The notes: generated by a model from the letters alone, not told the origin. Shown: positions 3,070 through 28,409, counted from the first letter of the stretch. The stretch is DNA of 35,709 nt from Chrysochromulina tobinii (GCA_001275005.1 JWZX01001686.1:1-35709), one strand, 5' to 3'. Made by a program: numbers and translations.

Positions 3070-5766
3070 TCAATCAAATTCGCCCCTCGCGAAGAATTTG
3101 AGCCATTCGGATAAAGCTTCGTCCGCGAGCTCGCTAGGTGCGGCTGGGGCTACCAACTGCTCGGCGCCGCACTGCGAGGCGAGCCACCAGAGTTCCATGC
3201 CGTCGCTGATCTCGTCGTTGCCAGGGCCCACACCCGAAAGTTCCCACACGCGCGGCCAGAGGGCAGAGAGCGCCGTGCCGGGCGGCACCACCCGCATCTC
3301 GCTCGCGCTCAGCATGGCCGCGAGCTCCGATCTCGTGAACTGCTCACCACGGCGCGCACGAGAGGCCATCAGGGAGGCCATCAGGGAGGCCATCAGAGGG
3401 GCCATCAGAGGGGCCCTTCAGAGGGGCATTCAGAGAGGCCACCAGAGAGGCCATCAGAGGCTATCATCACCTGCACCACACCGCGAACGAGCACGAGGTC
3501 GGCAGGCTTGATCTGCGGCTCCTGACTGCTGCTGGCTAAGCTGCTGGCTGATTGCATGCTGCTAGCCGGCTGCAGCTTCGCAGTGACGTCACTCGGACTC
3601 ATCAGGAAGACGCCCGAGGTGCCCAACTGCACGCCGCCCAATTCGGCGCGATGGTGCAGCCACACCTGATGAGGGAAGCCATTAAACACCATCAGACGCA
3701 ATCTCAGACGCAATCTCAGACGCAATCTCAGACGCAATCTCAGACGCAATCTCAGACGCTCCTTCAGTGCCACTCCCGCCGCCCAAGACGGCGCCAGGTT
3801 CCGGCCGGTAGCAGCAACTGGGTACGAAGCTCATCAGAGAGGTCATCAGAGAGGTCATCAGAGAGGTCATCAGAGAGGTCATCAGAGAGGTCATCAGAGA
3901 GGTCATCAGAGAGGTAATCAGAGAGGTAATCAGAGAGGTAATCAGAGAGGCACCTGGGTACGAAGCTCGCGGTTGCCGCAATAGAGTGCGCGGCGCTCGG
4001 GTTTGCCTGGTAGCTGAAAGCGCATCACGTTCACAGTCGGCCTGTTGAGCACACAGGCACTGACCACGCCGCGCGCGCCCTCATCCGCCTATGCAAAGGG
4101 GGCGATCAGTGGTGATCAGAGGCGATCAGTGCAGTGGCAATATCAGGGGCAATCGGTAAGCTCATTATGAAAGGCAATCATGAGAGCCCAGCAGAGCCCA
4201 TCAAGCGCGGTACCTGCAGCACGAGCAGGATCGCCTTGTGCAGGAATTGGTCCTCAAGCAAGACACGGTCCGCCGGCCGGCCTGTGACGGGCGACACCGT
4301 CGAGAGCAGCACCGTACCCACCCGAATCGTCGCGCCCATCTCGGCGCCTTGCTGGGCGCCTTGCTGGGCGCTCATCTCGGCGCTCGGCTCGGCCGCGCCC
4401 TCCGTGTCGGCGGTTGGCGTCGCGCTGCCTTGGGCGTTCTCAGCGCGACGCTCGAGCACGGCGCGGTAGTACTCCGCTGCACTCGTAGTAGCCGGCGCTC
4501 GGAGCGTCGTCTTGGGCAGCAGATGGGCGCGCACCCATTCGGTGAGCATCCGGTCGGCGAGGCTGCCTGCGCTCTGGCGCACCTGATGACGGAAGCAATT
4601 AGGAAGCAATTAGGAAGCAATTAGGCTCAGTGATGCTCAGAGGCGCTCAGAAGTCATCCGAGGCGCTCCGCATGCATCAGAGGCCATCAGTCGCGTACAT
4701 CCTCTTCGCGCCCTATGCTCTTCATTAAGCTGGCCCAGGTCCCAATCCCCGTAATGGAGCCCACATTCGGCTCGTTGACCATCGAGACCTCTCCAGGCGG
4801 CGGGAGCTCGCGTGCTTCGCGGAGCATCTCCTTGAGCAGCGTCCCGCTGTCTGCCGCAGCGAGGTACCAGCTCCCACGCTGCTCCAGCTCCATCTGCAGC
4901 TGGCCAGGCGCCCAACCGCTGTAACCAACACACACCCAAAAGTCCGACCGCTTGGCCACCCCTGCCATCACAAGGGCCTTGGCGCTGTCGAGGCTGCAGT
5001 ACGAGACGCCCTTGATCACGCGCGTAGAGACCTGATCAAGGGCGTAGAGTACAATCAATCAATAGAGTACAATAGAGTACAATCAGGTCTCTACAATGTA
5101 CAATAGAGTACAATCAGGTCTCTACAATCAATTGATTGATCACGCGCGTAGAGACCTGATCAATCGCAGGACGGCGGCCATCAGTCGCCATCAGTCGCCA
5201 TCCACGCTCATCAGTCGCAATCCACGCTCATCAGTGGCAATCCTCACCTGATCCACCAGGAAGCCTTCAAGCGCGTGCAGCGCGTTGATCTCGAGCTGTC
5301 CGCGCGCCTTGTCGGCGCCTAGAAAGATGCCGCCCTCGGCCACTTGGCCGTGCCCGCACCACAGGCGCCAGCCGTCCTGCTCGATCGCCGAGGGACGATT
5401 GAGGATGATGCCTTTGGTGAACGTCTCATCGTGCTGAAGAAGGAGCATGACCGACTTGTGGAAGAACTGCTGACGGAGCGCGAAGCCGAAGACCTGCTTC
5501 GTGCCGCCCATGAGGATCGAGCCCTGCTCGATGAGGGGCGTTTCGTAAGCGTAGCTGCCGGCGTAGCTGCCGTTGCTCGCCGCTGGCGTGCCGGATTCTT
5601 GTTCCTGGGCGACCAGTCGCGCGCGCATCTCACGCCAGTCGAGCTCCTCCTCGTTCATCGCGACGGATGCACGTCGTGAGAATATGACCGGAAGTGGCCG
5701 TGAGCTGATGGCCGGACGTGAGCTGATGGCGTGCGCCACCGCTGTGCACGTCATGAAAAAGAGCAT
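3070..5766 (-). CDS. Tandem DUF179 / AlgH-YqgE family protein, probably plastid-targeted (6 exons, ~606 aa)
   Basis: Deduced exons 5766-5248, 5031-4699, 4582-4214, 4088-3954, 3665-3471, 3339-3070, all GT-AG and phase 0. Motifs DWREMRARLV, FHKSVMLLLQH..GIILNRP, GYSGWAPGQLQMEL; a second degenerate domain has FLHKAILLVLQ..CVLNRP. The N-terminus looks like a signal peptide plus Ser/Arg-rich transit peptide. Confidence 0.85.
3361..3460 (-). repeat. Intronic 12-bp tandem repeat (AGAGGCCATCAG)n
   Basis: About 8 imperfect copies inside intron 3470..3340. Confidence 0.9.
3691..3950 (-). repeat. Intronic 12-bp tandem repeats (TCAGACGCAATC)n and (CATCAGAGAGGT)n
   Basis: Two arrays (3691-3760 and 3832-3950) inside intron 3953..3666. 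Confidence 0.9.
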
Positions 5767-6128
5767 CTTCGCTAGCAGGTCCTACAGCGAATCTTTTCAG
5801 GTTATCGCGGCGTCGCGTTCACACAGGTTTGGATTCAGTGGCTGTGAATGAGGGCGAGGGTCTTTTCTCCTCCATTACCAGGATTATCCGAGAATCTAAC
5901 CGATCGTCTTCATCACGCGCCACGCTTGCTTCTTGGCCACACGGGCCGGGCATCGCTGAGCGCCGAGGCCCTGCCCAAGGCAGCTCTCACGCGCGAGCGC
6001 AACCGCCTCACCCCCCAGCCCCACCTCACCTACTTCAGTCCCCCCGAGACCTCGAGAAACTTCACACCGCACCCACACACCACCATGACTCAGACACGAG
6101 ACGACAAACATGCCCTCCCTAATGGTGC

Positions 6129-7622
6129 TCACTTGTGGGCGGCGAACCACTTGCGGTTCCAGTAGATCCAGTAGGCAAAGATGAAAAACATGACGAAGTC
6201 GTCGAGGTCGAGAAGGATCCAGTAGTCGACAACGATATTGTACCCGCACATGCTGCACCACCTCGAAGCAACGGTCGCGGCGACGTCGGCGACCTCCGCC
6301 GCCGCGTCGCATGGCGCATCCGCGCTTGCGACACACGCCGCCATTGAGGGATCGACGGTGCCCGCATCGGTGTTGGAGGTGGGCTCGGTGGCGCACAACT
6401 TAGAGCACCGGGAGGCGTAGAGGAAGAAGGATATGTTGTGCGCGATGACGACGTATACTAAGTAGTGGCACGCGTCATGATACATGCTGAGCGCCGTCGA
6501 GTAGGGCAGCGCGGGCAGCGAGTCCGAGGACGTGTAGTTGATGCTGGTAAGCGTGAGAACGACGGTCAGAAGGAGCGAAAGCCGATTGCCGATTTCAACC
6601 GGCGGGATGAACGTCGACACGCACGCGAGCGCGGCGAAGACGCCCGGACGCAAAATGAAGTTGGTCACGTAATACTGCGGAAATCGACTGATGCGCATGC
6701 GCATCGTAAGAGCCGACTGCTCGCTCGTAGTATTCTCGTTCTCCGAGAGCTCCTCAGAGATGACATTCCACTCGAAGAGGCGTTTCTTGACGTCTGGCTT
6801 TACCTCGAGGATGCCCTCCTTGATGCGCTCCGACTCCACACGCATGTAGGGGTCGCAATCAAGCTCGTACATCTTGTCCTTGTGCTTCTTGGGAAGGAAG
6901 AGTTCGACTCTCAGCTCGTGCGAGTCGTAGGGGAACCCTTCGAAGTTGAAGTCGAGCTGCACGTCCGTCTCGATCAGGCCCGTCAGGACGGCGACGGTGC
7001 GATCGCGATCGCGATCATTGGGCTGCAGAGGCGGGAACCAGATCTCCTCCACTTCGTAATCGTCGTCGTAGACGCTTGTGGCGTCGGACACCCGGAAGAA
7101 CTCCCGCTTGCCCTTGAATTCAAGATTGCCGTTTTGGACGCCCAAGGTCGGGAGCGCTTCGAGCCGCTCGAGCTCTTTCCACGCTTCCTCTTCCGAGTTG
7201 ACCCGTTTGCCTTGTTCTGGCAGGAACTGCAGGGCCTCGTTGCGCGGCCGAAAGATGAGGTGGACGCGAAACACTATCTTCGCCCGCATATTCTTGCAAT
7301 CGATCTTGTTGACGGCGTGCAGCCGGCATGCGACGTAGCACGGCTCCCGCTGACGTTCCATCATATCCCTTAAAAGCTCGTTCGGGGGTGCGCGGCGCCT
7401 CCGGTTTTTAACGACTCGTTGCTCTTGTTGGCGCACGGGCGAGCGTGCAGGCCTCGGCAAGGGCGAGCGTGAAGAGCTGCGAGGCATTAGACACGCTCCT
7501 CGACTCGTTGTTGGGGCACAGGCGAGGGTGAGGAGCGCGCGCTGGCGCGCGACGGCATAGCTCGCAATTGCGAGTGTACAGTAGCGCTCGCATTTGCGAT
7601 GACCGCCTACTGTAGTTTGCAC
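6129..7622 (-). CDS. Cys-less (Pro-loop) pentameric ligand-gated ion channel subunit, ELIC/GLIC-like, copy 1
   Basis: Pro-loop FNFEGFPYDSHEL; pre-M1/M1 RFPQYYVTNFILRP; M2 NRLSLLLTVVLTLT; M2-M3 loop SDSLPALPYST (ELIC has SNILPRLPYTT); M4 near the C-terminus. Start uncertain (7622, 7487 or 7364). Confidence 0.85.
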   Translation of the reverse strand: MQTTVGGHRKCERYCTLAIASYAVARQRALLTLACAPTTSRGACLMPRSSSRSPLPRPARSPVRQQEQRVVKNRRRRAPPNELLRDMMERQREPCYVACRLHAVNKIDCKNMRAKIVFRVHLIFRPRNEALQFLPEQGKRVNSEEEAWKELERLEALPTLGVQNGNLEFKGKREFFRVSDATSVYDDDYEVEEIWFPPLQPNDRDRDRTVAVLTGLIETDVQLDFNFEGFPYDSHELRVELFLPKKHKDKMYELDCDPYMRVESERIKEGILEVKPDVKKRLFEWNVISEELSENENTTSEQSALTMRMRISRFPQYYVTNFILRPGVFAALACVSTFIPPVEIGNRLSLLLTVVLTLTSINYTSSDSLPALPYSTALSMYHDACHYLVYVVIAHNISFFLYASRCSKLCATEPTSNTDAGTVDPSMAACVASADAPCDAAAEVADVAATVASRWCSMCGYNIVVDYWILLDLDDFVMFFIFAYWIYWNRKWFAAHK

Positions 7623-7646
7623 ATGTTATATAAAAATGTAATGTGT

Positions 7647-7677
7647 GTCCCGGCTCCCCCCGGTGTCTTTTTACCGG
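7647..7677 (+). promoter_or_regulatory. Conserved ~31-bp intergenic motif, copy 1
   Basis: GTCCCGGCTCCCCCCGGTGTCTTTTTACCGG between divergently transcribed genes, next to TTATATAAAAA (7626-7636). The repeat is certain; the regulatory role is inferred. Confidence 0.55.
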
Positions 7678-7916: not shown

Positions 7917-9711
7917 ATGACTGGTGACCTTGACAATGGAACGCTCGACGTCTCGCTTGTGCACCGGACACGTCGCAGCAATTGGTTCGTCTACGTGGCC
8001 TTTCTCTTTCCGGCGCTAGCGGGCTTCCTTTTCGGCTACGACATCGGCGGAGCGTCCGGAGCAGTCCGCAGCCTGGACGTGAAGAGCAATGCGACGAGTG
8101 GCATTCCGCTGCACGACATCGAAAACGCGCTCTACACCTCAGCCTCGCTCATGGGCGCGACGCTCGGCTCCATCCTCGTCTTTTGGATAGGTGAGCCTCT
8201 CGGCCGCCGGCGCGAGCTCATGTGTGGCTCACTGCTGTACGCCGTGGGCGCGCTCGTGTCCGGCCTCGGGCCCGGCAGCGCCGCGACGGTCGTGACCGGC
8301 CGCGCGGTGTACGGTCTTGGGATTGCCTTCTCGATGCACTCGGCGCCCGTGTACATCAGCGAGATGGCGCCCGCCGACAAGCGCGGTCTGCTCGTCTCGT
8401 TGAAAGAGGGCTTCATCGTGCTTGGCATTCTCATGGGGTTTGGGGCGACGGCGATCGCCGAGGACGTGCTGGACGAAGCGACGGTGTACCGCGCCATCTG
8501 GCTCCCGACCAGCGCGATTGCGTGCGTCATCTTCATCGGCATGTCGCTCATGCCGGAATCCGCTCGCTGGCTGCTGCTCCGTGGCGACCCCTCCGACGTG
8601 AGTCAGTCCCAAGCAACCATCCACGCTTACCCCTCGCCTACCATATTTGGAACGAGCGCCACCGGGAGCCACGGTCTCCAACGCTCGACACTCCTCGCTG
8701 AGGAGGCGACGGGGCGATCACCTTCGAGGACCGCAGCCGCGGCGGCGCTGCGCCGCTTCCGCCGCGGGGCTTCCGAGGCGGAGATCGAGGCCGAGATTGC
8801 CGAGATCGAGATGACACTCTCCGATGTGCGAGCCTCCTCCAGGGCGTCTCCCGTGCTTGCCCCCCTACAGTACTGGCTCTGAGAGCCACTGACCTGAGCC
8901 ACTGATCGAGTTCACACTGATCGAGTTCACACTGATCGTGTTCACACTGATCGAGTTCACACTGATCGAGTTCACACTGATCGAGTTCACGCGATCGAAG
9001 GTGGTCGGCGCGTCCAAGAGCGGCTGGCACGAGGTGCTGCGCGCGCGCAAGGCGCTCCTCGCCGGCCTCGGACTGATCACCCTGCAGCAGCTGACTGGAC
9101 AGCCGTCGGTCCTCTACTACCAAGAAGCCATCTTCGATGATGCGGGCTTCGACCACTTTGCAGCGTACGCCGCCGTCATCATCGGCAGCGCCAAGCTGGT
9201 CGCGACGCTCGTCACCGTCTTCTACGTGGACCGTTTCGGGCGGCGGCCGTTACTCTTCGCGGGGATCACCATGATGCTTGGCGCGCTGGCCGTGCTCAGC
9301 ACGGCGTTCGCCTTGGGAGAGCCCTCGGGGACTGACGCGAAGCAGATCACCCTGCCCCCGGGCTGGCCGCCCGTCGTCGTGGCGGCCCTCGTGCTGTACG
9401 TGTGCGGCTACCAGGTGGGCTTCGGCCCGATTGGATGGCTCATCATCTCGGAGGTCTTCCCGCTCAGATCGCGCTCCCGCGCGCTCTCGCTCGCGGTGAT
9501 CACGAACTTTGCATGCAATCTGGGCATGACCTTTGGACTGGTGCCGATGCAGGTCGCGCTCGACGATCTGGTGCCCGGCTACGGGCAGGCGATCCTGTTC
9601 GGCATCTACGGCGCCCTGTGCGTCTTCTCTCTCGGTTTCGTCTTCTGCTGCGTGCCCGAGACGAAAGGGAAGACGCTCGAAGAGATTGAGGAGATGTTCA
9701 ACCGACGCTGA
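7917..9711 (+). CDS. MFS sugar porter (D-xylose/H+ symporter-like, VGT-type), 2 exons, ~539 aa
   Basis: Exons 7917-8825 and 9001-9711 (GTGCGA...AAG, phase 0). Motifs FLFGYDIG, EPLGRRREL, PVYISEMAP..RG, PESARWL, QQLTGQPSVLYY, DRFGRRPLL, ISEVFP, VPETKGKTLEEI. Confidence 0.93.
8901..8990 (+). repeat. Intronic 15-bp tandem repeat (ACTGATCGAGTTCAC) x6
   Basis: Near-perfect copies directly before the acceptor at 9000. Confidence 0.95.
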
Positions 9712-9793
9712 AGCAAAAAACTAAGGGGGGAGGCCAGACCTACTTGTGCCCCCCCCTAAAAAATCAGACCTTCATTACGGTTTGTCGTTTCCT

Positions 9794-10175
9794 GTGTTTA
9801 CGCGGTCGGAGGTGCGTATACGCAGAAACTTGTGTATACGCGAGGGGGTACGTATACGCACCCGCTGTGTATACGTACTACCGCTCGCGTATACGCACCT
9901 ACCTGCGTATATGCACCCGGGTGCGTGTACGCACCCGCTGCGTAAATGCACCCAGCGCTCGCGTATACACACCCACCCGCGTATACGCACCGGGTGCGTG
10001 TACGCAGGTAGGTGCGTATACGCACCCAGCGCTCGCGTAAACGCACTATTTCGCGTATACGCACCCGGGTGCGTAAACACACCTCTTGCATATACGCACC
10101 CAGCGTTCGCGTAAACGCGCTTTCTCGCGTATACACACCTGGGTGCGCATTCACGCACCCCCTGCGTTTACGCAG
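9794..10175. repeat. Array of ~21 palindromic GCGTATACGC-like units with 74-bp higher-order period
   Basis: Cores at 9814, 9832, 9850, 9867, 9887, 9905, 9923, 9940, 9961, 9979, 9996, 10014, 10035, 10053, 10071, 10088, 10109, 10127, 10145, 10164, plus a degenerate one at 9794. Confidence 0.9.
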
Positions 10176-10405
10176 GGACGCGACGAACGTCATGCTTGTT
10201 CTCACGCGTTTGGTTGGAGTGTGATGTGTCGACGGCCTTCCTGAAACTCTTCAGTCAATGCAGATCCTAGCCGGCCGCGAGTCCCCCCGATGTTTTTGAG
10301 GGGCAAGGAACGCAAGTTTTGAAACGCTTTCTCGCGCCACGTGGATTGCGCCCCATTACGTTTGTGCGTCCCGATTCGAGCCCTGGCACAAAAGCGCGCA
10401 ACCAC

Positions 10406-11976
10406 ATGCAACTACGTCGCGACGAGGCTGAGCCGAGGGTGACCACGGTGATCTGGGTCGGCGGCACCTCGGCTCTGGCGCGCACCTACTTCGACGAGGT
10501 TCACCCGACCGTCCGCGATCGCTTGCACATTGTGGTCGCCGCACCGGCGCTGCCGTCGTGGACTCTGCCCAAAGTTGGCGTGAGCTTCGTGGCACTCGAC
10601 CTCCTTGACGTGAAGAGCGTCGACTCGTTTTTCTCGCGGCCGGAGCTACTCGACACATATCGCACGGGGCCGAGCGTCATGATCATCGGCGTGCGCCTTT
10701 CCCTCGTGTGGGCCGGCTCTCGCCAGAGCACGCTGGCGGCCCACCTGGGGCGCCTGATCTCGCGTGCAGCCGTTGCGGGCTGCCTGGGCGTGGTGCACAT
10801 CTCGTCGGTGGCCGTCGCCGACCACGTGGTCTCGCAACACAATGTCAGCGAGTCCGCACCGCTCCCCGCCCTCGACGCCTATCATAGCGACTATGATCGC
10901 TTCAAGAGGCTGAGTGAGGTGATCGTAGATGACGAGTGTACGAAAGCCAACGAGAGGGCCGCGCTGAGCGGGGAGACGCGAATGATGGTGTGGACGCACC
11001 TTCGCATCTCGGGCATCTTCTCCAATGACCCCGCGTGCATCCAGTGCACGGCGGTGCGCAACCAGGCCTACATCTCAGCTTACTCGAGCACGTGCATCGA
11101 TTTCAACTCCTCAGCCAACGTCTCCCACGCCATCACGCTTCTCGTCGAGCGGATCGTGAGAGTGGTCACGGCTCTTCCGGCCAGCGCGGACCCGAGCGTG
11201 CCCGTCGAGTGTGCAGCCAATCTGGATGGTCGTCGGGTGCAGCGTGTCTACTACTACACGCGCGCCACGACGGCGCCTGTGCCCTACGGCGCCCTCGTGG
11301 CCGACTACCGGTGATTACAATATGCTCTGCTGATGGCGCCTGATGGCGCCTGATGGCGTCTGATGACCTCTGATGACCTCTGATGGCCTCGGATGGCCTC
11401 TCTTATGACCTCGGATGGCCTCTCTTATGACCTCTGATGGCCTCTGAGTTCAGGTCTGCTCACGGCATCCAGTACGGCGTGTGGTTGCCCGAGATCCTCT
11501 ACCTCGGCTTTGTGCGCTGCGTACAAGCTCTGTGCGCGCTCTGCCGCTGGCTCGCCCTCGCGCGGTCGGTGGCGTACCTCCTCGCAGTCTCAGTAAGTGC
11601 CTCTGATGATACCTCTGATGATGCCTCTGACTGCCTCTGATGACCTCTGATGACCTCTGATGACCTCTGATGACCCCTGATAGCCTCTGATGACCCCTGA
11701 TAGCCTCTGATGACCTCTGATGACCGCTGATGACCGCTGATGACCTCTGATGTCCCCTGACTGCCTCTGATGGCCTCGGATTGCACACGTGGACAACTAC
11801 AGGTCGCGGATCACACGTTCGACTGCTCACGCTTCCGCGAGGACTTCCCCGAGATGCAAGCACGCGAGGAGTCCATCCGCGAGTGCTTCGTGCGCATCCG
11901 ACAACGGCAGGAGGAGGCGCTGGCGCTGTCGCGGGCGGATGCACTAAGCCGATCGGACACGGCCAAGTTGGGCTGA
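10406..11976 (+). CDS. NAD-dependent epimerase/dehydratase-like (atypical extended SDR), 3 exons, ~405 aa
   Basis: Exons 10406-11310, 11454-11592, 11803-11976. Degenerate Rossmann VIWVGGTSALA, VVHISSVAV, catalytic YDRFK (YxxxK), C-terminal HTFDCSRFREDF. Confidence 0.8.
11328..11780 (+). repeat. Intronic decamer arrays (CTGATGACCT/CTGATGGCCT)n in two introns
   Basis: Arrays at 11328-11447 and 11600-11780, separated by exon 2. Confidence 0.9.
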
Positions 11977-12040
11977 CGTGCCCAAGTCGGCGCTGGCGCT
12001 GTCGCGGGCGGATGCACTAAGCCGATTGGACGCGGACCTC

Positions 12041-12241
12041 AAGTGACTGGATGCCACGGCCGTCTCCTTCGAGTTTCGTTAAGTGACTGGATGCCACGGC
12101 CGTCCCTTCGAGTTTCGTTAAGTGACTGGATGCCACGGCCGTCCCTTCGAGTTTCGTTAAGTGACTGGATGCCGCGGCCGTCCCTTCGAGTTTCGTTAAG
12201 TGACTGGATGCCACGGCCGGCGCGTCCCTTCGAGTTTCGTT
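12041..12241. repeat. 39-bp minisatellite x5 between convergent genes
   Basis: Unit AAGTGACTGGATGCCACGGCCGTCCCTTCGAGTTTCGTT starting at 12041, 12081, 12120, 12159 and 12198, head to tail with no spacers. Confidence 0.95.
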
Positions 12242-13470: not shown

Positions 13471-13592
13471 GAGAAATGATCTGTTCTGCTGTTTCAAGAC
13501 ATCACACTTGACTTCGAGTCTTGACGAAAGCTGAGCTGTTCAACACGACGCGCTTGTTAGCACACCGGGTGCAGAAAGTTGGCGCCCCAGAA

Positions 13593-17472: not shown

Positions 17473-17797
17473 AATCGGTGGGGTCAACTGCTTCCCCCTC
17501 GCGGAGAAAAACGAACGGCTCGGCACTCAATTCGTCTGATACGTATTTCGTTTCGGAACGACGTAGTGTTTAGTAGTTTAGTAGGAGGTGACGCGGTACG
17601 ATATGTGCCCGAAGAACCGCAAGTTTTTCGAGGTTGCCAGCTGCCGCACTGATGATCGGTGGGGTCAACTGGCGAAGGTAACGGCTCGACGCGATCGTTT
17701 CGTATTTCGCCCCATAACCAGAACAAATCCCCACAATCCTCTCCCGCACGCTGTGACACGGATGACCCGAACGAAGGCCGCAAGTTTTTCGAGGTCG
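17473..17797 (+). repeat. Degenerate ~160-180-bp direct repeat upstream of the second ion channel gene
   Basis: Ordered blocks ATCGGTGGGGTCAACTG, AACGGCTCG, CGTATTTCG and CCGCAAGTTTTTCGAGGT each occur twice (17473-17635 and 17654-17795). Confidence 0.8.
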
Positions 17798-17802
17798 GAG
17801 CA

Positions 17803-19428
17803 ATGCATCGCGCCGCGACGTCGCCAGCGCGCGAGAGCCCGGCGACGAGATACTCTCTCGACCCCAGGTACCTGAAACAGGTGCAGGCCGCACACGGTGA
17901 GCCTGAGGCACAGCCTGCGGCACAGCCTGCGGCACAAATGCCTTGGCTGGCCGACAACGTCGCTACGGGGCTCACAGGGGCACCCGTTGCTCCTGTGGTC
18001 GTCGCTCAGCGCAGCGCGACGTCGCCAGCGCTGCAGCGCATCCATTCCACCACATCCAGTGCCGGGTCCCAAGAGCCGGCGCCGTCGAGTCGCAACCCTT
18101 CCGTCCCCGGGTCCCGAGAGCCCCCGGACGATCTTTTGTGGGATATGATGATGCAACGTCAGCGGGAGCCGTGCTACGTGGCCTGCCGGCTGTGGGGCGT
18201 GAACGAGATCGACTTCAAGAGAATGCGGGCGGTTATGGTGTTTCGCGTCCACCTCATCTTTCGGCCGCGCAAGGAGGCCCTGCAGTTCTTGCCACCAAAA
18301 GGCAAACGCGTCAACTCGGAAGAGGAAGCGTGGAAAGAGCTCGAGAAGATCGAGGCGCTCCCGACCTTGAGCGTCCTCAACGGCAAACCGGTTTTCACAA
18401 GCAAGCAGGAGTTCTTCCGGATGTTCGACGCCAAAAGCGTCTACGACGACACTAACGAAGTGGAGATCTGGTTCCCGCCTCTGCAGCCCAATGATGAGCG
18501 CGAGGGAACCATCGCCGTCCTGACGGGCCAGATGGAGGTGACGGACGTTCAGCTCGACTTCAACTTCGAAGAGTTCCCCTTCGACGCACACGAGCTCTGT
18601 GTCAAGCTCTTCCTTCCCAAGAAGCACAAGGACAAGATGTACGAGCTCCATTGCGACCCCAACATGCGTGTGAAGTCGGAGAGCATCAAGGCCAAGGAGG
18701 AGGGCGGCCAAGGCATCCTCGAGGTAAAGCCAGACGTTAAGAAAAGCCTCTTCGAGTGGGAGATTATCCCGGAGAACACCGAGCTAGTCAGGAACGAGAA
18801 TGCTACGGGCGAGCAGTCGGGTGTTACGATGCGCATTGGCATCCGTCGCATTCCGCAGTATTACGTGACCAAGTTCCTTATCCGTCCGGGCGTGATCGCC
18901 GCGCTTGCGTGCGTGTCGACGTTCATCCTGTCCGACAATATTGGCGATCGGCTCGCGCTCACGTTCACCATCCTTCTCACGCTTACCGGCATCAACTACA
19001 CGTCCTCGGACTCGCTGCCCGCGCTGCCCTACTCGACGGCGCTCGACAAGTATCACGAGGCGTGCCACTACTTAGTGTACGGCGTCATCGCGCACAATGT
19101 AATCTTCTTCCTCTACGCCTTCCGGTGCTCTAAGTCATGCGCCGCCGAGCCCACCACCAACACCGCTGCGGGCACCGTCGATCCCACGATGGCGGCGTGT
19201 ATCGCAAGCGCGGATGCGCCATGCGCCGCGGCGGCGGAGGTCGCCGACGTCGCCGCGACCGTTGCCTCGAGGTGGTGCAGCATGTGCGGGTACAATATCG
19301 TTGTCGACTACTGGATCCTTCTCGACCTCGACGACTTCGTCATGTCTTTCATCTTCGCCTACTGGATCTACTGGAACGTCAAGTGGTTCGCCGCCCACAA
19401 CTTCAAGTGGTTCGGCACTCACAAGTGA
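17803..19428 (+). CDS. Cys-less (Pro-loop) pentameric ligand-gated ion channel subunit, copy 2
   Basis: FNFEEFPFDAHEL Pro-loop, RRIPQYYVTKFLIRP, GDRLALTFTILLTLT, SDSLPALPYSTALDKY; collinear with 6129..7622. First ATG in the ORF is 17803 (alternatives 17938 or ~18145). Confidence 0.87.
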   Translation: MHRAATSPARESPATRYSLDPRYLKQVQAAHGEPEAQPAAQPAAQMPWLADNVATGLTGAPVAPVVVAQRSATSPALQRIHSTTSSAGSQEPAPSSRNPSVPGSREPPDDLLWDMMMQRQREPCYVACRLWGVNEIDFKRMRAVMVFRVHLIFRPRKEALQFLPPKGKRVNSEEEAWKELEKIEALPTLSVLNGKPVFTSKQEFFRMFDAKSVYDDTNEVEIWFPPLQPNDEREGTIAVLTGQMEVTDVQLDFNFEEFPFDAHELCVKLFLPKKHKDKMYELHCDPNMRVKSESIKAKEEGGQGILEVKPDVKKSLFEWEIIPENTELVRNENATGEQSGVTMRIGIRRIPQYYVTKFLIRPGVIAALACVSTFILSDNIGDRLALTFTILLTLTGINYTSSDSLPALPYSTALDKYHEACHYLVYGVIAHNVIFFLYAFRCSKSCAAEPTTNTAAGTVDPTMAACIASADAPCAAAAEVADVAATVASRWCSMCGYNIVVDYWILLDLDDFVMSFIFAYWIYWNVKWFAAHNFKWFGTHK

Positions 19429-22502: not shown

Positions 22503-23117
22503 CTAGTACGTTGGCTGAGTATGGAACCCTCTACGGCTTGCGCCATGCCCGCACAGGGCCTTCGCGCACTTGAGGAGTCCAATCGGCGTGTCATCTTGCA
22601 CCAGCCGGGCAACGTTCTGATCATCGAGATAATGGATTTGGAGCGCCGCGTCGAGCTCGAAATTGAGATCGGCGAGCTCTGATGCGCCCGAGACAGCGCC
22701 CGTCTCGATGCAGGCGGCTGTGAGCGCCCCACGCAGCTCCGCGACTGACTCGATGGCTGCCATCGCCACGTGCACGATGTGCACGTTGCCATCGACCTCG
22801 ACGAAAGCTTTGATGGATTTGCCTTGTTTGCCTGGACGAGATCTCGGATGAATCTCGGATGGATCTCGCATGGATTTGCCTTGTTTGCCTGGACGAGATC
22901 TCGGATGAATCTCGGATGGATCTCGCATGGATTCGCCTAGTTTGCCTGGACGAGAGCCCTTGGAGACTGACGTCCGCTCTGGAGCGCCTGTAGACTCCTT
23001 CTTGAGCTTGGCGAGCGTCGTCGTCGCCGAGCGCACCGCTGCGGCCTTAGCGGCCGTGGTGATGTTTCGGCGGAAACTGGAAATTGCAGGGTCGTCGCCG
23101 ACGTCGCCGTCGCCGCC

Positions 23118-23153
<36 letters not shown>

Positions 23154-23855
23154 GTCTTCGTCGTCGTCGTCGTTCGCGTCTGCGTGCGTGATGATCGTGT
23201 GACGCTCGCACAGCGCGCGAACACACAGCACCCACACGAGCCCGAATCCGAGCAGGCCGCCTGCACCAAGCAGCACCGTGGCCGCAATCATGGACACGGG
23301 CGGCGGAGGCGAGGGAGGCGGTGGCGACGAGGGCGGTGGCGGTTGGTCTGGCTGGGGGCTGGGCGGCGGCAAGGGCTGAGGCGAGGGAGGCGGCGAGGGC
23401 CATGGTGGTGGCGGCGACGGCCTGGGTGGTGGCGGCGACGGTGGCTCCGGCGGCGGCAGCAGCGGCGGCGCCTGCGGGCAGAACTGACAAGCTTTGCATG
23501 CGCACATTATGCAGTGATGATCCGAGACCTTGGAATCGCACCACGGGAAGCATTCTCTGTTGTTGACATCTTGCGCCGAGGTAGGCTCGCACGTGGTGTC
23601 CAGGTGGCAGAAAAGACACGCCTCGCAATCGCAATGCAAGACGCAGTGCTGGGTTTTGAACAGCGGGTTACAGAAGCTCGAGCAGCTTGGTTTGCGGCCA
23701 GTCGCGACGCACGACTTGTCCTCAACAGGGTGACCCGCTTGAGCAGAATGGCAGGCAGCATAGAGAATCGTAAAAGTTAAAATGGCACGCGGCAGCTGCG
23801 CGGCAGAGCACATTGCGTGTCGCGTACGGGCAAACTTCGATACGAGCGGATGCAT
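22503..23855 (-). CDS. Type I membrane protein: signal, Cys-rich repeats, poly-Pro stalk, TM helix, poly-Asp tract, C-terminal beta-grasp/PB1-like segment
   Basis: 450-aa ORF with two C..C..HC..C.C.AC.FC units, SPPPP repeats, hydrophobic MIAATVLLGAGGLLGFGLVWVLCV and a long Asp run. Confidence 0.75.
22813..22955 (-). repeat. 57-bp in-frame tandem repeat (2.5 copies)
   Basis: Units start at 22813, 22870 and 22927; they encode SMRDPSEIHPRSRPGKQGK. Confidence 0.93.
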
Positions 23856-23930
23856 GCTTATTCATATTGGATGGTTGTGATGTTCGTCGTGTGATCCGAT
23901 TGCCCGTGTGCGCCCGTGTGTCCCGTGAAA

Positions 23931-23961
23931 GTCCCGGCTCCCCCCGGTGTCTTTGAACCGG
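23931..23961 (+). promoter_or_regulatory. Conserved ~31-bp intergenic motif, copy 3
   Basis: GTCCCGGCTCCCCCCGGTGTCTTTGAACCGG between divergent genes. Confidence 0.55.
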
Positions 23962-24126
23962 AGACAAACGGAACCGCGGTTCGGAGAATTGCATCCGGTT
24001 CCCTGCATCGGGCACTCATCGGGCTCGTGCTTGAGGGCACGCGGTCGACGACGCCGATCATCCCGCCGGACGCCCGACCGCCACCGAAACACGTTGGCCG
24101 ATTGAGCACCTGCGTGGGCAATAGCG

Positions 24127-27100
24127 ATGGGGAAGAAGGATGAGCGTAAGAAAAAGGAGGAGGAGCGTCAAATGTCTCGGGAACTCGACGCCGACCTGGT
24201 CGATGAGAGTCTCGCTCGCCAGGCTGCGAAGCTGAGCACGAAGCCGGTGATCGACAAAGGCGTGGAGGAGCTCTTCGAGAAGAAGCTGACCAAGGAGGAG
24301 AAGAAGGAGCTGGCGGCCAAGAAGAAGGCGGAGCGAGAAGCACGCAAGGCGGCAGCAGGGGCAGATGCTGGGGGCGACTGTGACGACGACGACGAAGCTG
24401 GGGCACCCGGCACCACGGATCCGGCGTCGGCGGCCAAGGCGAAGACTACGAAGGCGAAGCCCGAGACGAAGGCGGATAAGGTGCTGCGCGAGGCCGCGCT
24501 TCTCGACCAGGAGCTTGAGGAGGCGCGCGTGCGCGCCGTGCGCCTTCGCAACGCCGAGGGTGCTTACCTCGGCCAGATCGAGGCGACGGGATTCTCGTTA
24601 GCCAACCCGGGCGGCGGCCCCGATCTGCTCGAGCGTGCGAGCTACACGCTGCAGCGAGGGCGGTCGTACGGTCTCGTGGGCCGCAACGGGTGCGGCAAGA
24701 GCACGTTACTCAAGGCGATGGCCTCGCGGCGTGTGGGGAACATCCCGCCGGCTGTGACGGTGCACTACGTGTCTCAAGAGGTCGTCCTGACCGAGGCGAC
24801 GCTCAAGATGACGCCCGTGGAGGTGGTGGTGAACGCGGACGTGGAGCGTCGGCTCTTGCTCGAGGAGCGTGACGCGCTGCTGGCGGCGGAGGCACGCGGA
24901 GAGCCCATCGATGGCGAGCGGCTGCAGGGGCCCGGTGGTGTGCTGGAGCAACTTCAGCTGATGGACGAGGAGACGGTCGAGAGGTGAGTGCGTCTGAGTG
25001 CATCGGAGTGCATCGGAGTGCATCTGAGTGCATCTGAGTGCGTCTGAGTGCATCTGAGTGCGTCTGAGTGCATCTGAGTGCGTCTGAGTGCATCTGAGTG
25101 CGTCTGAGTGCATCTGAGTGCATCTGAGTTCATCCGAGTGCATCGGAGTGCATCGGAGTGCGACTAGTTGCCTCGGTTGCCCTCAGATGCCCTCCCTGGT
25201 TGCATCTGATGGTCTCCCTCATCAGCTGATGCCCTCCCTGATCGCTCCCCTTCCTCAGGCGCGCCACGACGCTGCTGGTCAACCTCGGCTTCTCTGACGA
25301 GCTGCGCGCCCGTCCGATGGCGGCCCTCTCCGGCGGCTGGCGTGTTCGCACATGCCTCGCCGCGGCGATCTTCGGCAAGCCGGACATGTTGCTGCTCGAT
25401 GAGCCAACGAATCACCTGTCGATCGGAGCGGTGCTCTGGCTCGCTCGGGAGCTCAAGACGAACCCTACCTGGTGAGTGCCGTTGATTGCCGTTGATTGCC
25501 TCGGATGGCCTCGGATGGCCCCTGCTTGCGTCTGAGTGCGTCTGAAGACCTGACTGATGACGTCTGATTGCACGCCTCATCAGAGAGGATAGGATCATCG
25601 TCACTGATGACGTCTGATTGCGCGCCTCATCAGGGAGGATAGGATCATCGTCACTGATGACGTCTGATTGCGCGCCTCATCAGGGAGGATAGGATCATCG
25701 TCGTGGTGAGTCACGATCGCTTCTTCCTTGACTCGGTCTGCGGCGACATCTTGCACGTCTCGGGCGTCGCCAAGCGCCTCTCACAGTCCCACGGCTCATA
25801 CTCCACCTGGGCCCAGCGCCGTGCCGAGCAGCAGAAGGCCTTCGCGCGAGCAGTCGAGCTCCGGCGTGCCGAGATCGCCGAGCTCCGTGAGTACGCGGGG
25901 CATGGCTTCAAGTACGGCGGCTCGGGCTCGCAGATCGCCAAGATGCAGATGAAGGCTAAGCAGGTGCATCTGGAGGAGGAGTACCTCTGAGTGCCTATGA
26001 TGGGCTCTGATTGCCTCTGATTGCCTCTGATTGCATCTGGAGGAGTACCTCTGAGTACCTCTGATTGCCTCTGATTGCCTCTGATTGCATCTGGAGGAGG
26101 AGTACCTCTGATTGCCTCTGATTGCCTCTGATTGCCTCTGATTGCCTCTGATTGCCTCTGATTGCCTCTGATTGCCTCTGACTGACTATGATAGGCTCTG
26201 ATTGCCTCCGAGTGCCTCTGAGTTGCTGTGATTGGTTCCCTCCTCAGGCCGATAAGCTCGAGGAGGAGGAGGAGGCGGAGAAGGAGGAGCTGGCCGCGCT
26301 GCAGGAGGACGTCGAGCTCCCCCTCAATCTCAAGGTACGTTGATTACCACTGATTACCACTGATTACCACTGATTGCCACTGATGACGTCGAGCTCCCCC
26401 TCAATCTCAAGGTACGTGGATTGCCACTGATGACCTGCCTGGCATGCAAGTGCTCACCACGGCGCTGCGGGCTCCCCTGAATCTCAAGTCGGGAGGCCAG
26501 ATCGATTGCCCCTGATGACCTGCCTGGCATGCAAGTGCTCACCACGGCGCTGTGGCTCCCCTGACTCTCAAGTCGGGAGGCCAGATCGACGGCTTTTGTG
26601 TGCAGCTGCGCGGCGTCGCATTCGGGTACCCGGGCTCCGACGCGCCTCTCTTCCGCAACGCCGAGCTGTCGGTGGACACGAAGTCGCGCATTGTGCTGCT
26701 CGGCGAGAATGGGAACGGCAAGTCGACCCTCTGATGGGCTCTGATGGCCACTGATGGCCACTGATGGCCACTGATGGCCACTGATGGGCTCGGATGGGCT
26801 CTGATGGGCTCTGATGGGCTCTGATGGGCTCTGATTGCCTCTGTTGGCCTCTTGATGGCCTCTTGATGGCCTCTGATGGCCTCTGATTGCCTCTGATGGC
26901 CTCTGCGTGCATGTGATCGCCTCCATCATCAGGCAAGTCGACCCTCGTGAAGCTGATGACGGGATCACTCGAGCCAACCGAGGGCGAGATCAAGCGCAAC
27001 GCTAAAGTGCGGATCGCCATCGTCAATCAGCACCACGCCGACCAGCTCAACCTCGAGATGACGCCCATTGAGTTCATGAAGCATAAGGTGAGCGCTCGTC

Positions 27101-28409
27101 GCAGCGCTCGCGATCATTGCGCTCGATGACGATCGATGGCGACGGAATGCCACTACCCTGTACTTCCATCGATTGTACTCAGTAGTTGCCTCTGATTGGC
27201 ACCGGTGGACTCGAATGGCCTCTGAGTGCCACCCGACACTTGCGTCCACCCGACGCTTGCGTTGCCTCGTCCTGTTCCCTGGGACGCTCTGCAGCGCACT
27301 GACGAACCCTGCTGATGGCTCTGCTGCGCACTGACGAACCCTGCTGATGGCTCTGCTGCGCACTGACGAACCCTGCTGACGGCTCTGCTGCGCACTGACG
27401 AACCCTGCTGACGGCTCTGCTGCGCACTGACGAACCCTGCTGACGGCTCTGCTGCGCACTGACGAACCCTGCTGACGGACCATCCTGCGCACTGACGAAC
27501 CCTGCTGACGGCTCTGCTGCGCACTGACGAACCCTGCTGACGGACCATCCTGCGTTGCCTCGTCCAGTTCCCTGGCGATGGCTCGGCGGCGCACGACACG
27601 CTGCTACGCTCGCATCTCGATCGGATGGGGGTGCCCACAGTGAAGCAGACGGTGCCGGCGTATGGCTTGTCCGGCGGGCAGCGCTCTCGCGTCGCTCTCG
27701 CGGCCGTCTCGTAAGTCGAGCTTTGATTGCACGTGATCTCGTATGTCGAGCTTTGATTGCACGTGATCTCGTATGTCGAGCTTTGATTGCACGTGATCGC
27801 CTCCTCATGGCCTCAGATGGCCTCCTTCATCAGGTACTCCGCCCCTTGGGAGATTGCATCTGAGTGCGTCTGAGTGCGTCCCTCATCAGGTACGTCGAGC
27901 CGCACATCCTCGTGCTCGACGAGCCTACGAACAACCTTGACCTTGAGTCCGTGGCAGCGCTCGCGGATTGCGTCGAGCGCTTTGATGGGGGCGTCATCCT
28001 CGTGTCGCACGACCAGGTACCTCTGATGACCTCTGATGACCTCTGATGACCTCTGATGGCCTCTGATGGCCTCTGATGGCCACTGATGGCCTCTGATGGC
28101 CTCTGATGGCCTCTGATGGCCTCTGATTGCCTCTGATTACCTCTTAGTGCCTCGAACCGCCACTGATGGCCGCGCCATCGCCCCGTACGCGCAGTACTTC
28201 GTGGGACGGGTGGCCTCTCTGAGTGCCTCTGATGACCTCTGATGACCTCTGATGACCTCTGATTGCCGCACGCGCAGTACTTCGTGGGACGGGTGGCCAG
28301 GGAGGTGTGGCTCGTCGCGAAGCAGGCCGTCAGCCGGGTTGAAAGCTTCGAAAAGTACCGCGACTACCAGCTCAAGAAGCTCGCCCCCCTGGTGGTCGAC
28401 GTCAATTGA
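24127..28409 (+). CDS. ABC-F family ATPase (GCN20/ABCF3-like), 9 exons, ~712 aa
   Basis: Exons 24127-24983, 25259-25471, 25684-25963, 26248-26334, 26573-26717, 26933-27087, 27568-27710, 27890-28016, 28278-28409 (2139 nt, open frame). Two NBDs: GRNGCGKST/LSGGWR/LLLDEPTNHL/VSHDR and GENGNGKST/LSGGQR/LVLDEPTNNLD/VSHDQ; no TM domain. Intron 5 is GC-AG. Confidence 0.93.
24985..25162 (+). repeat. Intronic decamer array (CTGAGTGCAT/CTGAGTGCGT)n
   Basis: About 17 copies in ABC-F intron 1. Confidence 0.95.
26006..26222 (+). repeat. Intronic decamer array (CTGATTGCCT)n
   Basis: ABC-F intron 3, interleaved with three TGCATCTGGAGGAG..TACCTCTGA blocks. Confidence 0.95.
27294..27552 (+). repeat. Intronic 32-bp minisatellite x8
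   Basis: GCGCACTGACGAACCCTGCTGACGGCTCTGCT units in ABC-F intron 6. Confidence 0.95.

Follow-up and report, generated by a model that had tools for sequence, protein, structure and literature searches.

Array-filled introns of Chrysochromulina tobinii as probable introner-like insertions with long, variable target duplications

Introduction

Roy et al. (2020, bioRxiv 10.1101/2020.10.14.339549) described introner-like elements from dinoflagellates, namely from Symbiodinium and, as classes 4 and 5, from Polarella glacialis. According to the available text of that preprint, one element end forms the 3' splice site, the duplication's 5' end forms the 5' splice site, the elements lie in a single orientation, several families occur per genome, and GC donors are tolerated; the system described here is similar in all these respects. 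In the dinoflagellates, however, the duplication is fixed at 3-8 nt and many classes carry inverted repeats, as expected of transposases, whereas here the duplication varies from 11 to 57 nt, no real inverted repeats are present, and the body is a tandem array of variable length.

Haptophyte introners were reported by Gozashti et al. (2022, PMC9860276; 2025, PMC12130899), namely family 5 of a Chrysochromulina sp. TARA MAG, three families in Emiliania huxleyi and nine in Pavlovales sp. CCMP2436. As far as the available text of these articles goes, the likeness to the present system lies in the same algal phylum and in short, non-autonomous elements without an assigned class, and some families are scored, as would fit here, as co-opting the 5' and carrying the 3' splice site. 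In contrast, duplications in the Chrysochromulina MAG family measure 4 bp, and that family carries its 5' site and co-opts its 3' site; a tandem array or a long variable duplication is described for no haptophyte family in the available text of either article. For Chrysochromulina tobinii (GCA_001275005.1), the 2025 dataset, in its accessible part, gives zero introner families (PMC12130899).

In its footprint, and in that only, the present system also resembles non-LTR retroposons: the duplication varies in length, the 3' end is constant and the 5' end varies. Non-LTR retroposition (target-primed, as in LINEs and SINEs) produces variable duplications, a constant 3' end, a variable 5' extent and microhomology at the 5' junction. 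Unlike such retroposons, the elements here lack an A-rich or simple-repeat tail at the 3' end, and they have an array on the 5' side, duplications of up to 57 nt, and a 3' end that is an intron acceptor.

In Daphnia, Li, Tucker and Lynch reportedly found in 2009 that introns were gained where staggered breaks had been repaired, with short direct repeats on either side. Tandem repeats of 10-11 nt are said to have been noted by Read et al. in 2013 in introns of the GC-rich haptophyte Emiliania huxleyi, reportedly without linking them to mobility or to any terminal block or target duplication. If so, introns of that alga would be filled with repeats of about 10 nt, as they are here.

Introners derived from non-LTR elements have been reported as well (PMC12130899, available text), as have intron gain through tandem duplication (PMC4974935) and repeat expansion in Cryptococcus (PMC2395259). 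Judging from the accessible parts of the latter two sources, the tandem-duplication gains and the Daphnia case resemble the present one in that direct repeats of host sequence flank the new introns and a splice site comes from the duplication. They differ in being single events with unrelated filler or the gene's own sequence, whereas a conserved insert recurs here in many genes.

Materials and Methods

The window, that is, the whole stretch of DNA analysed, comprises 35,709 nucleotides of C. tobinii (GCA_001275005.1, JWZX01001686.1:1-35709). Arrays were called with Tandem Repeats Finder. A metagenome scan gave 147 loci, reduced to 136 non-redundant ones (355,046 nt); they were chosen by array pattern, which biases unit frequencies and between-locus similarity. 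To call coding strands, a codon model was trained on the genes of the window; in leave-one-gene-out runs it called 80 chunks correctly and 1 wrongly, with 14 ambiguous. Intron ends in the metagenome loci are predictions, RNA proof being confined to the introns of the window.

Results

Splicing and gene context

All 16 introns deduced in a preliminary description of this DNA were skipped exactly as deduced in RNA contigs from libraries X11-X14. They span 3340-28277 and together occupy 3,548 of the window's 35,709 bases. After the sliding that the 16 joints allow, 15 introns have GT-AG ends and one has GC-AG ends, and splicing leaves open frames of 719 codons in the ABC gene and 570 codons in the DUF179 gene. 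A 17th joint, 9770-10194, occurred in run X13 only and lies in an intergenic palindromic repeat; none of its possible ends is canonical. Among the gene labels given earlier, DUF179, the sugar transporter and a two-domain ABC ATPase were supported by Pfam, whereas the third gene, labelled 'SDR', gave zero Pfam matches at E <= 0.01 and is referred to here as Rossmann-like.

The introns are as follows; the terminal block and the second-family core are described below.

3340..3470, minus strand: DUF179 intron 1, 131 nt, GT-AG, RNA joint in X11 and X13; 12-nt array at 3360-3459; at its 3' end, part of the second-family core in inverted form, GCGCCGTGGTGAGCAG.
3666..3953, minus strand: DUF179 intron 2, 288 nt; 12-nt arrays at 3692-3759 and 3831-3950; terminal block at 3666-3685; the exon end recurs over 15 nt (19 nt if one mismatch is allowed; 3954-3968 and 3818-3832), bracketing the first array.
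4089..4213, minus strand: DUF179 intron 3, 125 nt; short 10-nt array at 4101-4131; RNA joint.
4583..4698, minus strand: DUF179 intron 4, 116 nt; ends in a variant of the terminal block at 4583-4602 (...TTCCGTCATCAG).
5032..5247, minus strand: DUF179 intron 5, 216 nt; 23-nt copy across the 3' splice site and exon start (5012-5034 and 5136-5158).
8826..9000, plus strand: sole intron of the sugar-transporter gene, 175 nt; 15-nt array of CACTGATCGAGTTCA, 6.7 copies, at 8900-8998; neither duplication nor terminal block was found in it.
11311..11453, plus strand: intron 1 of the third (Rossmann-like) gene, 143 nt; 10-nt arrays; RNA joint.
11593..11802, plus strand: second intron of the third gene, 210 nt; CCTCTGATGA repeated about 18 times; RNA joint.
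24984..25258, plus strand: ABC intron 1, 275 nt; about 18 units of CTGAGTGCAT; internal terminal block at 25206-25225.
25472..25683, plus strand: ABC intron 2, 212 nt; 50-nt unit three times, at 25553-25702.
25964..26247, plus strand: ABC intron 3, 284 nt; about 25 units of CCTCTGATTG; RNA joint.
26335..26572, plus strand: ABC intron 4, 238 nt; two second-family cores (GCATGCAAGTGCTCACCACGGCGC) starting near 26440 and 26525; exon end and donor copied over 33 nt (26308-26340 and 26385-26417), flanking a 10-nt array; exon start copied over 20 nt (26486-26505 and 26570-26589).
26718..26932, plus strand: ABC intron 5, 215 nt, GC-AG; interrupts the Walker A codons; RNA joint slides by 15.
27088..27567, plus strand: ABC intron 6, 480 nt; 32-nt unit eight times at 27286-27543, with CTGAC twice per unit; a repeat of about 26 nt with one mismatch, found by eye, flanks the array and spans the acceptor.
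27711..27889, plus strand: ABC intron 7, 179 nt; 30-nt unit three times at 27707-27798, whose first 11 nt repeat the downstream exon start with one mismatch; one terminal block at the 3' end (27870-27889) and another inside the intron (27814-27833).
28017..28277, plus strand: ABC intron 8, 261 nt; two 10-nt arrays; RNA joint; a 24-nt copy across acceptor and exon start (28192-28215 and 28275-28298) flanks the second array.

By inspection, the duplication beside the second array in introns 26335-26572 and 28017-28277 could be a simple array-seeded tandem duplication.

The idea that arrays or junctions are products of assembly or of read mapping in repetitive DNA was considered scarcely credible. 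It is true that the arrays draw contigs from many loci, that RNA contigs reach a very high summed depth over 11339-12005 and 27827-28483, and that many loose ends occur. However, the 16 joints recur across separate RNA libraries with long unique flanks, open frames result from them, and matching architecture is present in many independent metagenome assemblies.

Polarity and composition of the arrays

The tandem-repeat filling noted in the preliminary description was recovered at the same places, with at least one array in each of the 16 introns and periods of 10, 12, 15, 30-32 and 50-85. The transcribed strand of the introns contains 175 CTGA compared to 17 TCAG, in agreement with the polarity described earlier for this core; on the plus strand of the window, introns contain 94 of the 120 CTGAT and 35 of the 45 ATCAG. 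The strand bias was also evident outside the window. In the 136 loci, CTGA-polarised arrays whose two flanks were called on the same strand ran with that coding strand in 116 cases and against it in 4, and masking all arrays gave 119 versus 3. Concordance between arrays and coding strand was complete in 69 of 73 loci, and one of the four opposing arrays is of the typical kind.

The statement that such arrays are absent from intergenic DNA is weak: the window contains little intergenic DNA, and other tandem repeats, lacking the CTGA core, are present in it at 9814-10174 and 12041-12241. A CGGATG-type repeat at 22813-22955 lies in DNA of ambiguous coding status.

In the metagenome loci, the array unit is about 10 nt long, with the consensus CCTCTGATGR. 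The commonest units were CTGATGACCT (75 arrays) and CTGATGGCCT (44), counts that are skewed by the search pattern.

Several of these properties would be expected of an origin in situ, in which old introns had their branch-point motifs expanded by slippage, sense arrays being kept for redundant branch points and for TGA in all frames, which exposes a retained intron to degradation, and nothing was inserted. Every 10-nt unit contains CTGAT, which fits CTRAY, and CTRAY is present in 15 of the 16 window introns, its last copy 8-51 nt from the 3' end. Stop codons occur in all three frames in 16 of 16 introns, a period of 10 was found in 213 of 276 arrays, array copy number differs between haplotypes, and about half of the block-bearing arrays have no duplication. 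The argument from TGA in three frames, already made in the preliminary description, holds for units of period 10 but does not follow for those of 12 and 15 nt. The evidence on duplications and on the terminal block, given below, weighs more heavily against this explanation.

The shared terminal block

The arrays of about 10 nt terminate in a conserved 20-nt block, CTGATKRCCTCCCTCATCAG, which is followed by GT. Conservation at positions -20 to -1 ranges from 53 to 100%, and the CAG is followed by G in 93% and then by T in 73%. In the non-redundant metagenome loci, YCATCAG stands after 75 of 235 arrays and before 12. The window contains 10 block matches (at most 3 mismatches) compared to 0.02 expected, all on the transcribed strand; they fall in two of the four intron-bearing genes, and five coincide exactly with the 3' end of an intron proven by RNA. 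The earlier view that no element is shared among the introns was therefore abandoned. Related copies occur as introns of unrelated genes, as is characteristic of introners. On the other side, 11 of the 16 window introns have no block at their 3' end, which counts against insertion.

The block consensus contains a CTGAT whose A lies at -17; a C/T-rich tract, CCTCCCTC, comes next. From its sequence and position, this CTGAT is a plausible putative branch point; the last CTGAT would be the candidate branch point of the intron, and CCTCCCTC would serve as its pyrimidine tract.

Duplications around the arrays

Exact direct repeats of at least 11 nt were found around 86 of 233 arrays, compared to about 3.7 expected from permuted pairs, and in 69 of the 86 the repeat is unique non-array sequence adjoining the array. 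When anchored at the acceptor, the exon start was repeated upstream of the array in 35 of 74 block-bearing arrays of the metagenome loci (0.31 expected), over a variable length of 11-57 nt. Exon duplication around arrays reached about 100 times the chance rate, which points to an intron-building process. From the same loci, 23 examples of the duplication were aligned. Of 33 donor-equivalent dinucleotides in the upstream copy, 24 were GT and 6 were GC, and where the upstream flank was confidently coding (15 cases), the reading frame carried on in 12.

Within the window, duplications were present in 8 of the 16 introns. The cleanest case is ABC intron 5, where a 15-nt duplication (26717-26731 and 26932-26946) encloses the array and the terminal block at 26913-26932. 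Its GCAAGT donor comes from the upstream duplicate, and the Walker A codons are restored once the insert and one of the 15-nt copies are taken out. In ABC intron 2, a short array, the terminal block and 19-22 nt from the downstream exon together make up the 50-nt unit, which is the entire insert with its duplication, present in three tandem copies. Splicing is precise and uses carried or co-opted splice sites, as in introners.

The preliminary description had set these introns apart from classical introner transposons, seeing neither terminal inverted repeats nor a shared full-length element. Since target duplications of 11-57 nt flank the insert, the idea that an insertion footprint is lacking was not supported, and the system is a variant of introner-like elements with unusually long and variable target duplications. 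Against insertion, no duplication was found in 39 of the 74 block-bearing arrays or in 8 of the 16 window introns, and where present it has no fixed length, unlike duplications made by transposases, which is atypical for introners.

The footprint of the array family recurs in a second, unrelated family, GCATGCAAGTGCTCACCACGGCGCC...CACAG, which has no arrays. Of its 36 cores, 22 had both flanks called sense and none had both called antisense, and duplications were present in 10 of 23 cases, compared to 0.41 expected.

An origin in situ leaves unexplained the excess of exon duplications, the 20-nt block common to unrelated genes and loci, clean cases such as 26718-26932 with its restored Walker A codons, and the footprint of the array-less family; it was judged improbable. 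The 16 introns belong to an introner-like family that probably arose when a short sequence was inserted, sense-oriented, into genes. What is inserted is an array of about 10-nt units (CCTCTGATGR) in variable number, ending in the block CTGATKRCCTCCCTCATCAG and probably bringing its own 3' splice site. As sequence and RNA together show, a stretch of 11-57 nt of the host gene is directly duplicated on both sides of the insert; its downstream copy is the start of the next exon and its upstream copy, beginning with GT or GC, is the start of the intron. Splicing from the upstream GT to the CAG of the block takes out the insert and one copy and restores the frame, as sequence and RNA likewise show. 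Arrays would lengthen and shorten through slippage, and unequal exchange between the duplicated copies could multiply whole units. Probably only those sense insertions survive in genes that supply an acceptor fit for use and come to lie ahead of a GT that can serve as donor, which would account for the strand polarity.

Ends, folds and mode of copying

No real terminal inverted repeats were found, the only inverse match being one of 7 nt (CTGATGA / TCATCAG), and RNA folds were no more stable than shuffles in five of six elements (z of -0.1, -1.3, +1.6, -2.5, -0.7 and -0.3), in line with the earlier observation that no such repeats are visible. The system thus has neither the terminal inverted repeats nor the fixed-length duplication of DNA-transposon-type introners. 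A hammerhead ribozyme or C/D-box snoRNA, both of which contain CUGAUGA or CUGA boxes, was also considered and rejected, no Rfam family reaching its gathering score. At E <= 1, the Rfam covariance models gave zero hammerhead matches and one C/D-box match in an array, with 21 bits against a threshold of 41.

Within the insertion reading, the copying step may have been reverse transcription of the 3' part of the excised intron at a staggered nick, similar to target-primed retroposition, with its constant 3' end, variable 5' end and variable duplication. This suggestion is the leading one but tentative. DNA template switching during repair or replication is a possible route as well, though a somewhat doubtful one.

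Template switching could also have acted with no mobile element at all, fragile arrays leading, through microhomology, to the copying of an intron stretch from elsewhere or from the same array before the polymerase returned upstream, so that a templated insertion and a variable duplication resulted. The duplications are indeed long and variable. The downstream junction shows an overlap of 0-3 nt (CAG) in 14 of 17 strong cases, and the nine clean upstream junctions show microhomology of 0, 0, 1, 2, 3, 3, 3, 3 and 4 nt. Whole units are tandemly repeated two or three times, both in the loci and at 25553-25702 of the window, and the duplications in introns 26335-26572 and 28017-28277 include the array end. 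However, the end of the insert is the exact acceptor AG in two unrelated families, for which an RNA intermediate (the excised intron) is simpler, and clean junctions in the sample are few. Arrays were, moreover, not more alike within loci than between them (mean Jaccard 0.053 and 0.087, respectively), a comparison biased by how the loci were found. This alternative was therefore regarded as rather unlikely.

A broader form of the insertion reading is that most or all present introns of this alga were built by one copy-and-paste route, in which the mobile unit would be the intron's own 3' part (branch-point-like array, pyrimidine tract and CAG), perhaps with excised intron RNA copied back at a staggered break. 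It would involve no transposase-type ends and at least two unrelated families, and its copies, being short and tandemly repetitive, would have escaped a published pan-eukaryote screen. Such generality is speculative and unlikely; if true, the 3' part of an intron would itself be mobile, and two or more unrelated families would use the route.

Recency and array length

Perfect duplications of up to 47 nt suggest that the insertions are young. In 13 overlapping locus pairs, no difference in the presence or absence of a whole intron was found, while array copy number differed. Between the near-identical haplotypes L003 and L005, one array differs by 80 nt, corresponding to 8 units. As arrays vary even between such haplotypes, much of their length may be slippage without function.

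Splicing and Tandem Arrays in the Window

The repeat-filled introns constitute an introner-like intron-building system, in which a terminal block is shared and the target duplications are long and of variable length. The window has a GC content of about 0.57–0.69, and its genes are tightly packed and mostly consist of single long exons. These single-exon genes encode CLASP-like, EamA transporter, 2OG oxygenase, protein kinase, P450 and fn3/phosphatase-like products, together with two Cys-loop channel-like products; the latter are intronless algal genes with the Cys-loop ligand-gated ion channel transmembrane region (PF02932), at 6129–7625 (−) and 17656–19428 (+). All RNA-proven introns were confined to four genes:

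DUF179 gene, minus strand, 5 introns
Sugar transporter gene, 1 intron
Gene with a Rossmann-like start and no Pfam match, 2 introns (its earlier label "SDR" found no Pfam support)
Two-domain ABC ATPase gene, 8 introns

When RNA contigs from four libraries were aligned to the window, 16 segments were skipped, establishing that the introns deduced in the preliminary description are spliced; contigs of this kind reveal junctions, neither lariats nor expression levels. Within the sliding that each joint permits, 15 introns had GT..AG ends and one had GC..AG ends, and the spliced frames were open over 719 codons in the ABC gene and 570 codons in the DUF179 gene. A 17th joint (9770–10194) was rejected as an intron, as it appeared in one run only, offered no canonical option and sits in an intergenic palindromic repeat. 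RNA contigs pile up on the arrays to a very high depth, which was not taken as expression, since it sums many loci.

Tandem Repeats Finder detected arrays in all 16 introns. Their sense polarity was also borne out, with 175 CTGA versus 17 TCAG on the transcribed strand. On the + strand, 94 of 120 CTGAT and 35 of 45 ATCAG motifs fell inside introns, which occupy 9.9% of the window. The arrays and their polarity are genuine and greatly exceed chance expectation. The accompanying statement that arrays are absent from intergenic DNA carries little weight, as such DNA is scarce; other repeats were present there (9814–10174, 12041–12241 and 22813–22955).

Stop codons occurred in all three frames of every intron (16/16), as had been predicted. 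The preliminary description proposed a function for the arrays, which would act as redundant branch points and would place stops in each reading frame. A period of 10 was found in 213 of the 276 CTGA-polarised arrays of the metagenome loci listed, a prevalence for which shared descent accounts as well as selection. The Emiliania genome paper of Read and colleagues (2013) is said to remark on 10–11-nt repeats in introns.

Polarity of Arrays in Metagenome Loci

Metagenome contigs were scanned on both strands for pairs of adjacent array units. At least 147 loci were obtained, reduced to at least 136 non-redundant ones (355,046 nt), none overlapping the window. Because they were picked by the array pattern, neither unit frequencies nor abundance can be read from them, and their intron ends are predictions. 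Coding strands were assigned with a codon log-odds model trained on 13 coding segments from the window, which in leave-one-gene-out trials on 300-nt chunks gave 80 right, 1 wrong and 14 ambiguous calls.

The listed loci contained 437 repeat regions (Tandem Repeats Finder), 276 of them CTGA-polarised. It was evident that the strand bias extends beyond the window: where both flanks were called on one strand, CTGA lay on the coding strand in 116 arrays versus 4 on the opposite strand. Masking every repeat region gave 119 versus 3, and 6 arrays lay between opposite-strand flanks. Among the loci listed, 69 of 73 were fully concordant. Any bias from arrays in the flanks would counter this concordance, because the antisense reading of an array has open frames. 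Three of the four opposing arrays were unrelated repeats with incidental CTGA, and one (metagenome locus L039) was a typical array in antisense.

Conserved Terminal Block

The preliminary description had proposed an intron-building system without a common element; the system stands, its lack of a common element does not, since a conserved block was found at array ends, recurring in the window and in the listed loci. RNA contigs derived from other loci had loose ends that repeatedly read ...CCTCATCAG followed by GT, and several window introns end likewise. Among the listed loci, YCATCAG lay within 45 nt after the array in 75 of 235 cases and before it in 12. The consensus aligned on CAG reads ...CTGATGACCT CTGAT(T/G)(G/A)CCTCCCTCATCAG, followed by G T (G/A) C G, with positions −13 to −1 conserved at 74–100% in these loci. 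There, CTGATTGCC was commoner as the last unit than among internal units.

Within the window, the 20-nt block gave 10 matches at up to 3 mismatches, versus 0.02 expected, all 10 on the transcribed strand. Five of these coincide exactly with the 3′ ends of introns proven by RNA (3666, 4583, 25683, 26932 and 27889), and the remaining five are internal. The block carries CTGAT, with A at −17, followed by a C/T-rich run and CAG. Judged by sequence, these are arranged as a branch point, a pyrimidine tract and an acceptor would be, and a branch-point role of the CTGAT is plausible. No exact match to the terminal block was found in the viral contig collection, and a virus as carrier was set aside on that ground.

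Duplicated Host Sequence

The joint 26716/26932 in the ABC gene slides by 15 nt because the intron and the next exon begin with an identical 15-nt stretch. Only array and block lie between the copies; once these are excised together with one copy, the Walker A codons are intact again. Exon-derived duplications flanking an array were found in seven further window introns.

Duplications flanking arrays in window introns
Intron with joint 26716/26932: 15 nt, copies 26717–26731 and 26932–26946
Intron 3666–3953: 15 nt (19 nt with one mismatch)
Intron 5032–5247: 23 nt
Intron 25472–25683: 22 nt; whole 50-nt unit repeated three times
Intron 26335–26572: 33 nt and 20 nt
Intron 27088–27567: about 26 nt with one mismatch, by eye
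Intron 27711–27889: 11 nt with one mismatch
Intron 28017–28277: 24 nt

A 60-nt unique segment within intron 3666–3953 was considered as a former exon and rejected, as its coding score is negative and it contains a stop in frame; more likely, the array entered a pre-existing intron here, 4 nt past the donor.

Comparable footprints were obtained for the listed loci. Exact direct repeats of at least 11 nt, within 60 nt on both sides, surrounded 86 of 233 arrays versus about 3.7 expected from permuted pairs, and 69 of these 86 were unique non-array sequence adjoining the array. When anchored on the acceptor, a copy of the exon start lay directly upstream of the array in 35 of 74 block-bearing arrays, versus 0.31 expected. 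Duplication lengths in these loci ranged from 11 to 57 nt with no favoured value, which disposes of a fixed 15-bp duplication suggested by two window cases. At the donor-equivalent position of the predicted introns, GT was present in 24 of 33 listed cases and GC in a further 6. Where the upstream flank was confidently called as coding (15 listed cases), removal of the predicted intron left the frame continuous in 12. The 23 aligned cases from the listed loci share one order: exon, copy starting (CA)G/GT..., (CCTCTGATGR)n, GCCTCCCTCATCAG, copy, exon.

Several duplications run on with point differences, and their ages therefore differ. The whole unit of copy, array and block was found in tandem, two to three times, in some loci and at 25553–25702 of the window. 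Two near-identical lake-metagenome haplotypes or strains (L003:1041–2853 and L005:1–1741) differed in one intron array by exactly eight 10-nt units (80 nt); arrays therefore behave as variable-number repeats. Array length alone differed in this haplotype comparison, in which neither whole-intron presence/absence nor empty sites were seen.

An Unrelated Family Sharing the Footprint

A search for common non-array words recovered GCATGCAAGTGCTCACCACGGCGCC, an introner-like core unrelated to the arrays, in more than 25 listed loci (L008, L013, L019, L025, L026, L033, L037, L051, L055, L066, L068 and others). Downstream of this core come a C/T-rich run and CACAG, then GT. Two copies lie in the window, inside intron 26335–26572:

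26440–26475, GCATGCAAGTGCTCACCACGGCGCC copy
26525–26560, GCATGCAAGTGCTCACCACGGCGCC copy

Of 36 cores in the listed loci, 22 had both flanks coding on the strand of the element and none on the opposite strand. An exon-start duplication was present at 10 of 23 listed cores, versus 0.41 expected, with lengths of 11–43 nt and one of 90 nt. The predicted introns of this family measured 64–99 nt. That two families share this footprint suggests copying at the host or RNA level, not by one transposon.

Proposed Mechanism

Across the demonstrated set, introns are spliced, arrays lie in sense, the block stands at the acceptor, and host sequence is duplicated on both sides, the upstream duplicate beginning with the donor. 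A short sequence made up of array and block would have been copied into genes along with a long staggered duplication. The copies surviving in exons would be sense ones, spliceable through the block acceptor and a duplication that opens with a usable GT. Such survival would yield the polarity without the array itself being functional.

The copying route may, tentatively, be reverse transcription of the 3′ part of an excised intron at a nick, which fits the exact AG end of both unrelated families as well as the variability of the 5′ extent and of the duplication. DNA template switching, an only slightly less likely alternative, fits the microhomology at both junctions, the tandem multiplication of whole units and the duplications that take in array ends. 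As to possible local copying inside a gene, arrays within one listed locus were no more alike than arrays of different loci, a comparison biased by the choice of loci. Stable hairpin or inverted-repeat structures were looked for in the elements and not found. Should a host- or RNA-level route be true, intron-to-intron copying would be testable in a culturable alga.

Relation to Described Introners

The origin of new spliceosomal introns is a long-standing question. To our knowledge, introners are the only intron-gain mechanism shown at genome scale, and nearly all described introners known to us resemble ordinary transposons with short, fixed target duplications. Every RNA-proven intron of the 36-kb window is of the repeat-filled class. 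Its well-preserved members have a distinct footprint, namely a long, variable host-exon duplication and an exact end at AG, and their block supplies a likely branch point, pyrimidine tract and acceptor.

Some dinoflagellate introner-like classes follow the same splice logic, with the element end as acceptor and the duplication start as donor. In the available portions of the reports, those classes have fixed 3–8-nt duplications, whereas the present elements have variable ones of 11–57 nt. Haptophyte introners are published, in the sections available, for a Chrysochromulina MAG, Emiliania huxleyi and a Pavlovales strain; the MAG introner has a 4-bp duplication and carries the 5′ site. None of these is characterised there as a tandem array that has long variable duplications. 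The accessible parts of the literature further include introners derived from non-LTR elements, along with families of unknown mechanism.

A 2025 dataset scores the Chrysochromulina tobinii assembly GCA_001275005.1 with 0 introner families, and in the available portion of the 2022 tables this assembly appears only among the genomes screened. The P450 product of the window is identical to a protein present in NCBI nr, UniRef and EukProt, the RNA and DNA data sets that contain the stretch carry mixed-culture and freshwater labels, and the GC content agrees with the published C. tobinii assembly. If, as is likely, the window is from the species of that assembly or a very close relative, published screens missed the array and GCATGCAAGTGCTCACCACGGCGCC families; screens that mask repeats can score such a genome as introner-free. 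A full-text literature search returned nothing on tandem-array introners, nor on such introns in Chrysochromulina.

Other Repeats and Motif Matches

Several further features were observed in the window:

2534–2652 (+), sub-threshold match to an HDV-like ribozyme model
9814–10174, intergenic 18- and 74-nt repeats on the palindrome GCGTATACGC
11633–11682 (+), array unit with both C-box-like UGAUGA and D-box CUGA
12041–12241, 39-nt unit repeated 4.6 times (97% matches)
22813–22955 (+), 57-nt unit repeated 2.5 times

HDV-like ribozymes occur at the 5′ ends of some retroposons. The match at 2534–2652 (33 bits versus a threshold of 44, E = 0.014) lies directly past the stop of the first gene and may be due to chance. 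The C/D snoRNA model gave one weak match inside an array (21 bits versus a threshold of 41), probably a motif coincidence; a hammerhead or C/D-box identity of the CUGAUGA and CUGA motifs received no support from model matches.

The repeats at 9814–10174, between the sugar-transporter gene and the next, showed RNA contigs with odd non-canonical joints and a strand switch, as well as weak sub-threshold matches to miRNA hairpin models. The repeat at 12041–12241 lies between convergent genes and is without the CTGA core. The repeat at 22813–22955 contains CGGATG units resembling a degenerate array; nearby DNA is assigned to the minus strand by the codon model and has almost no RNA coverage, and the repeat could be an antisense or non-genic array copy.
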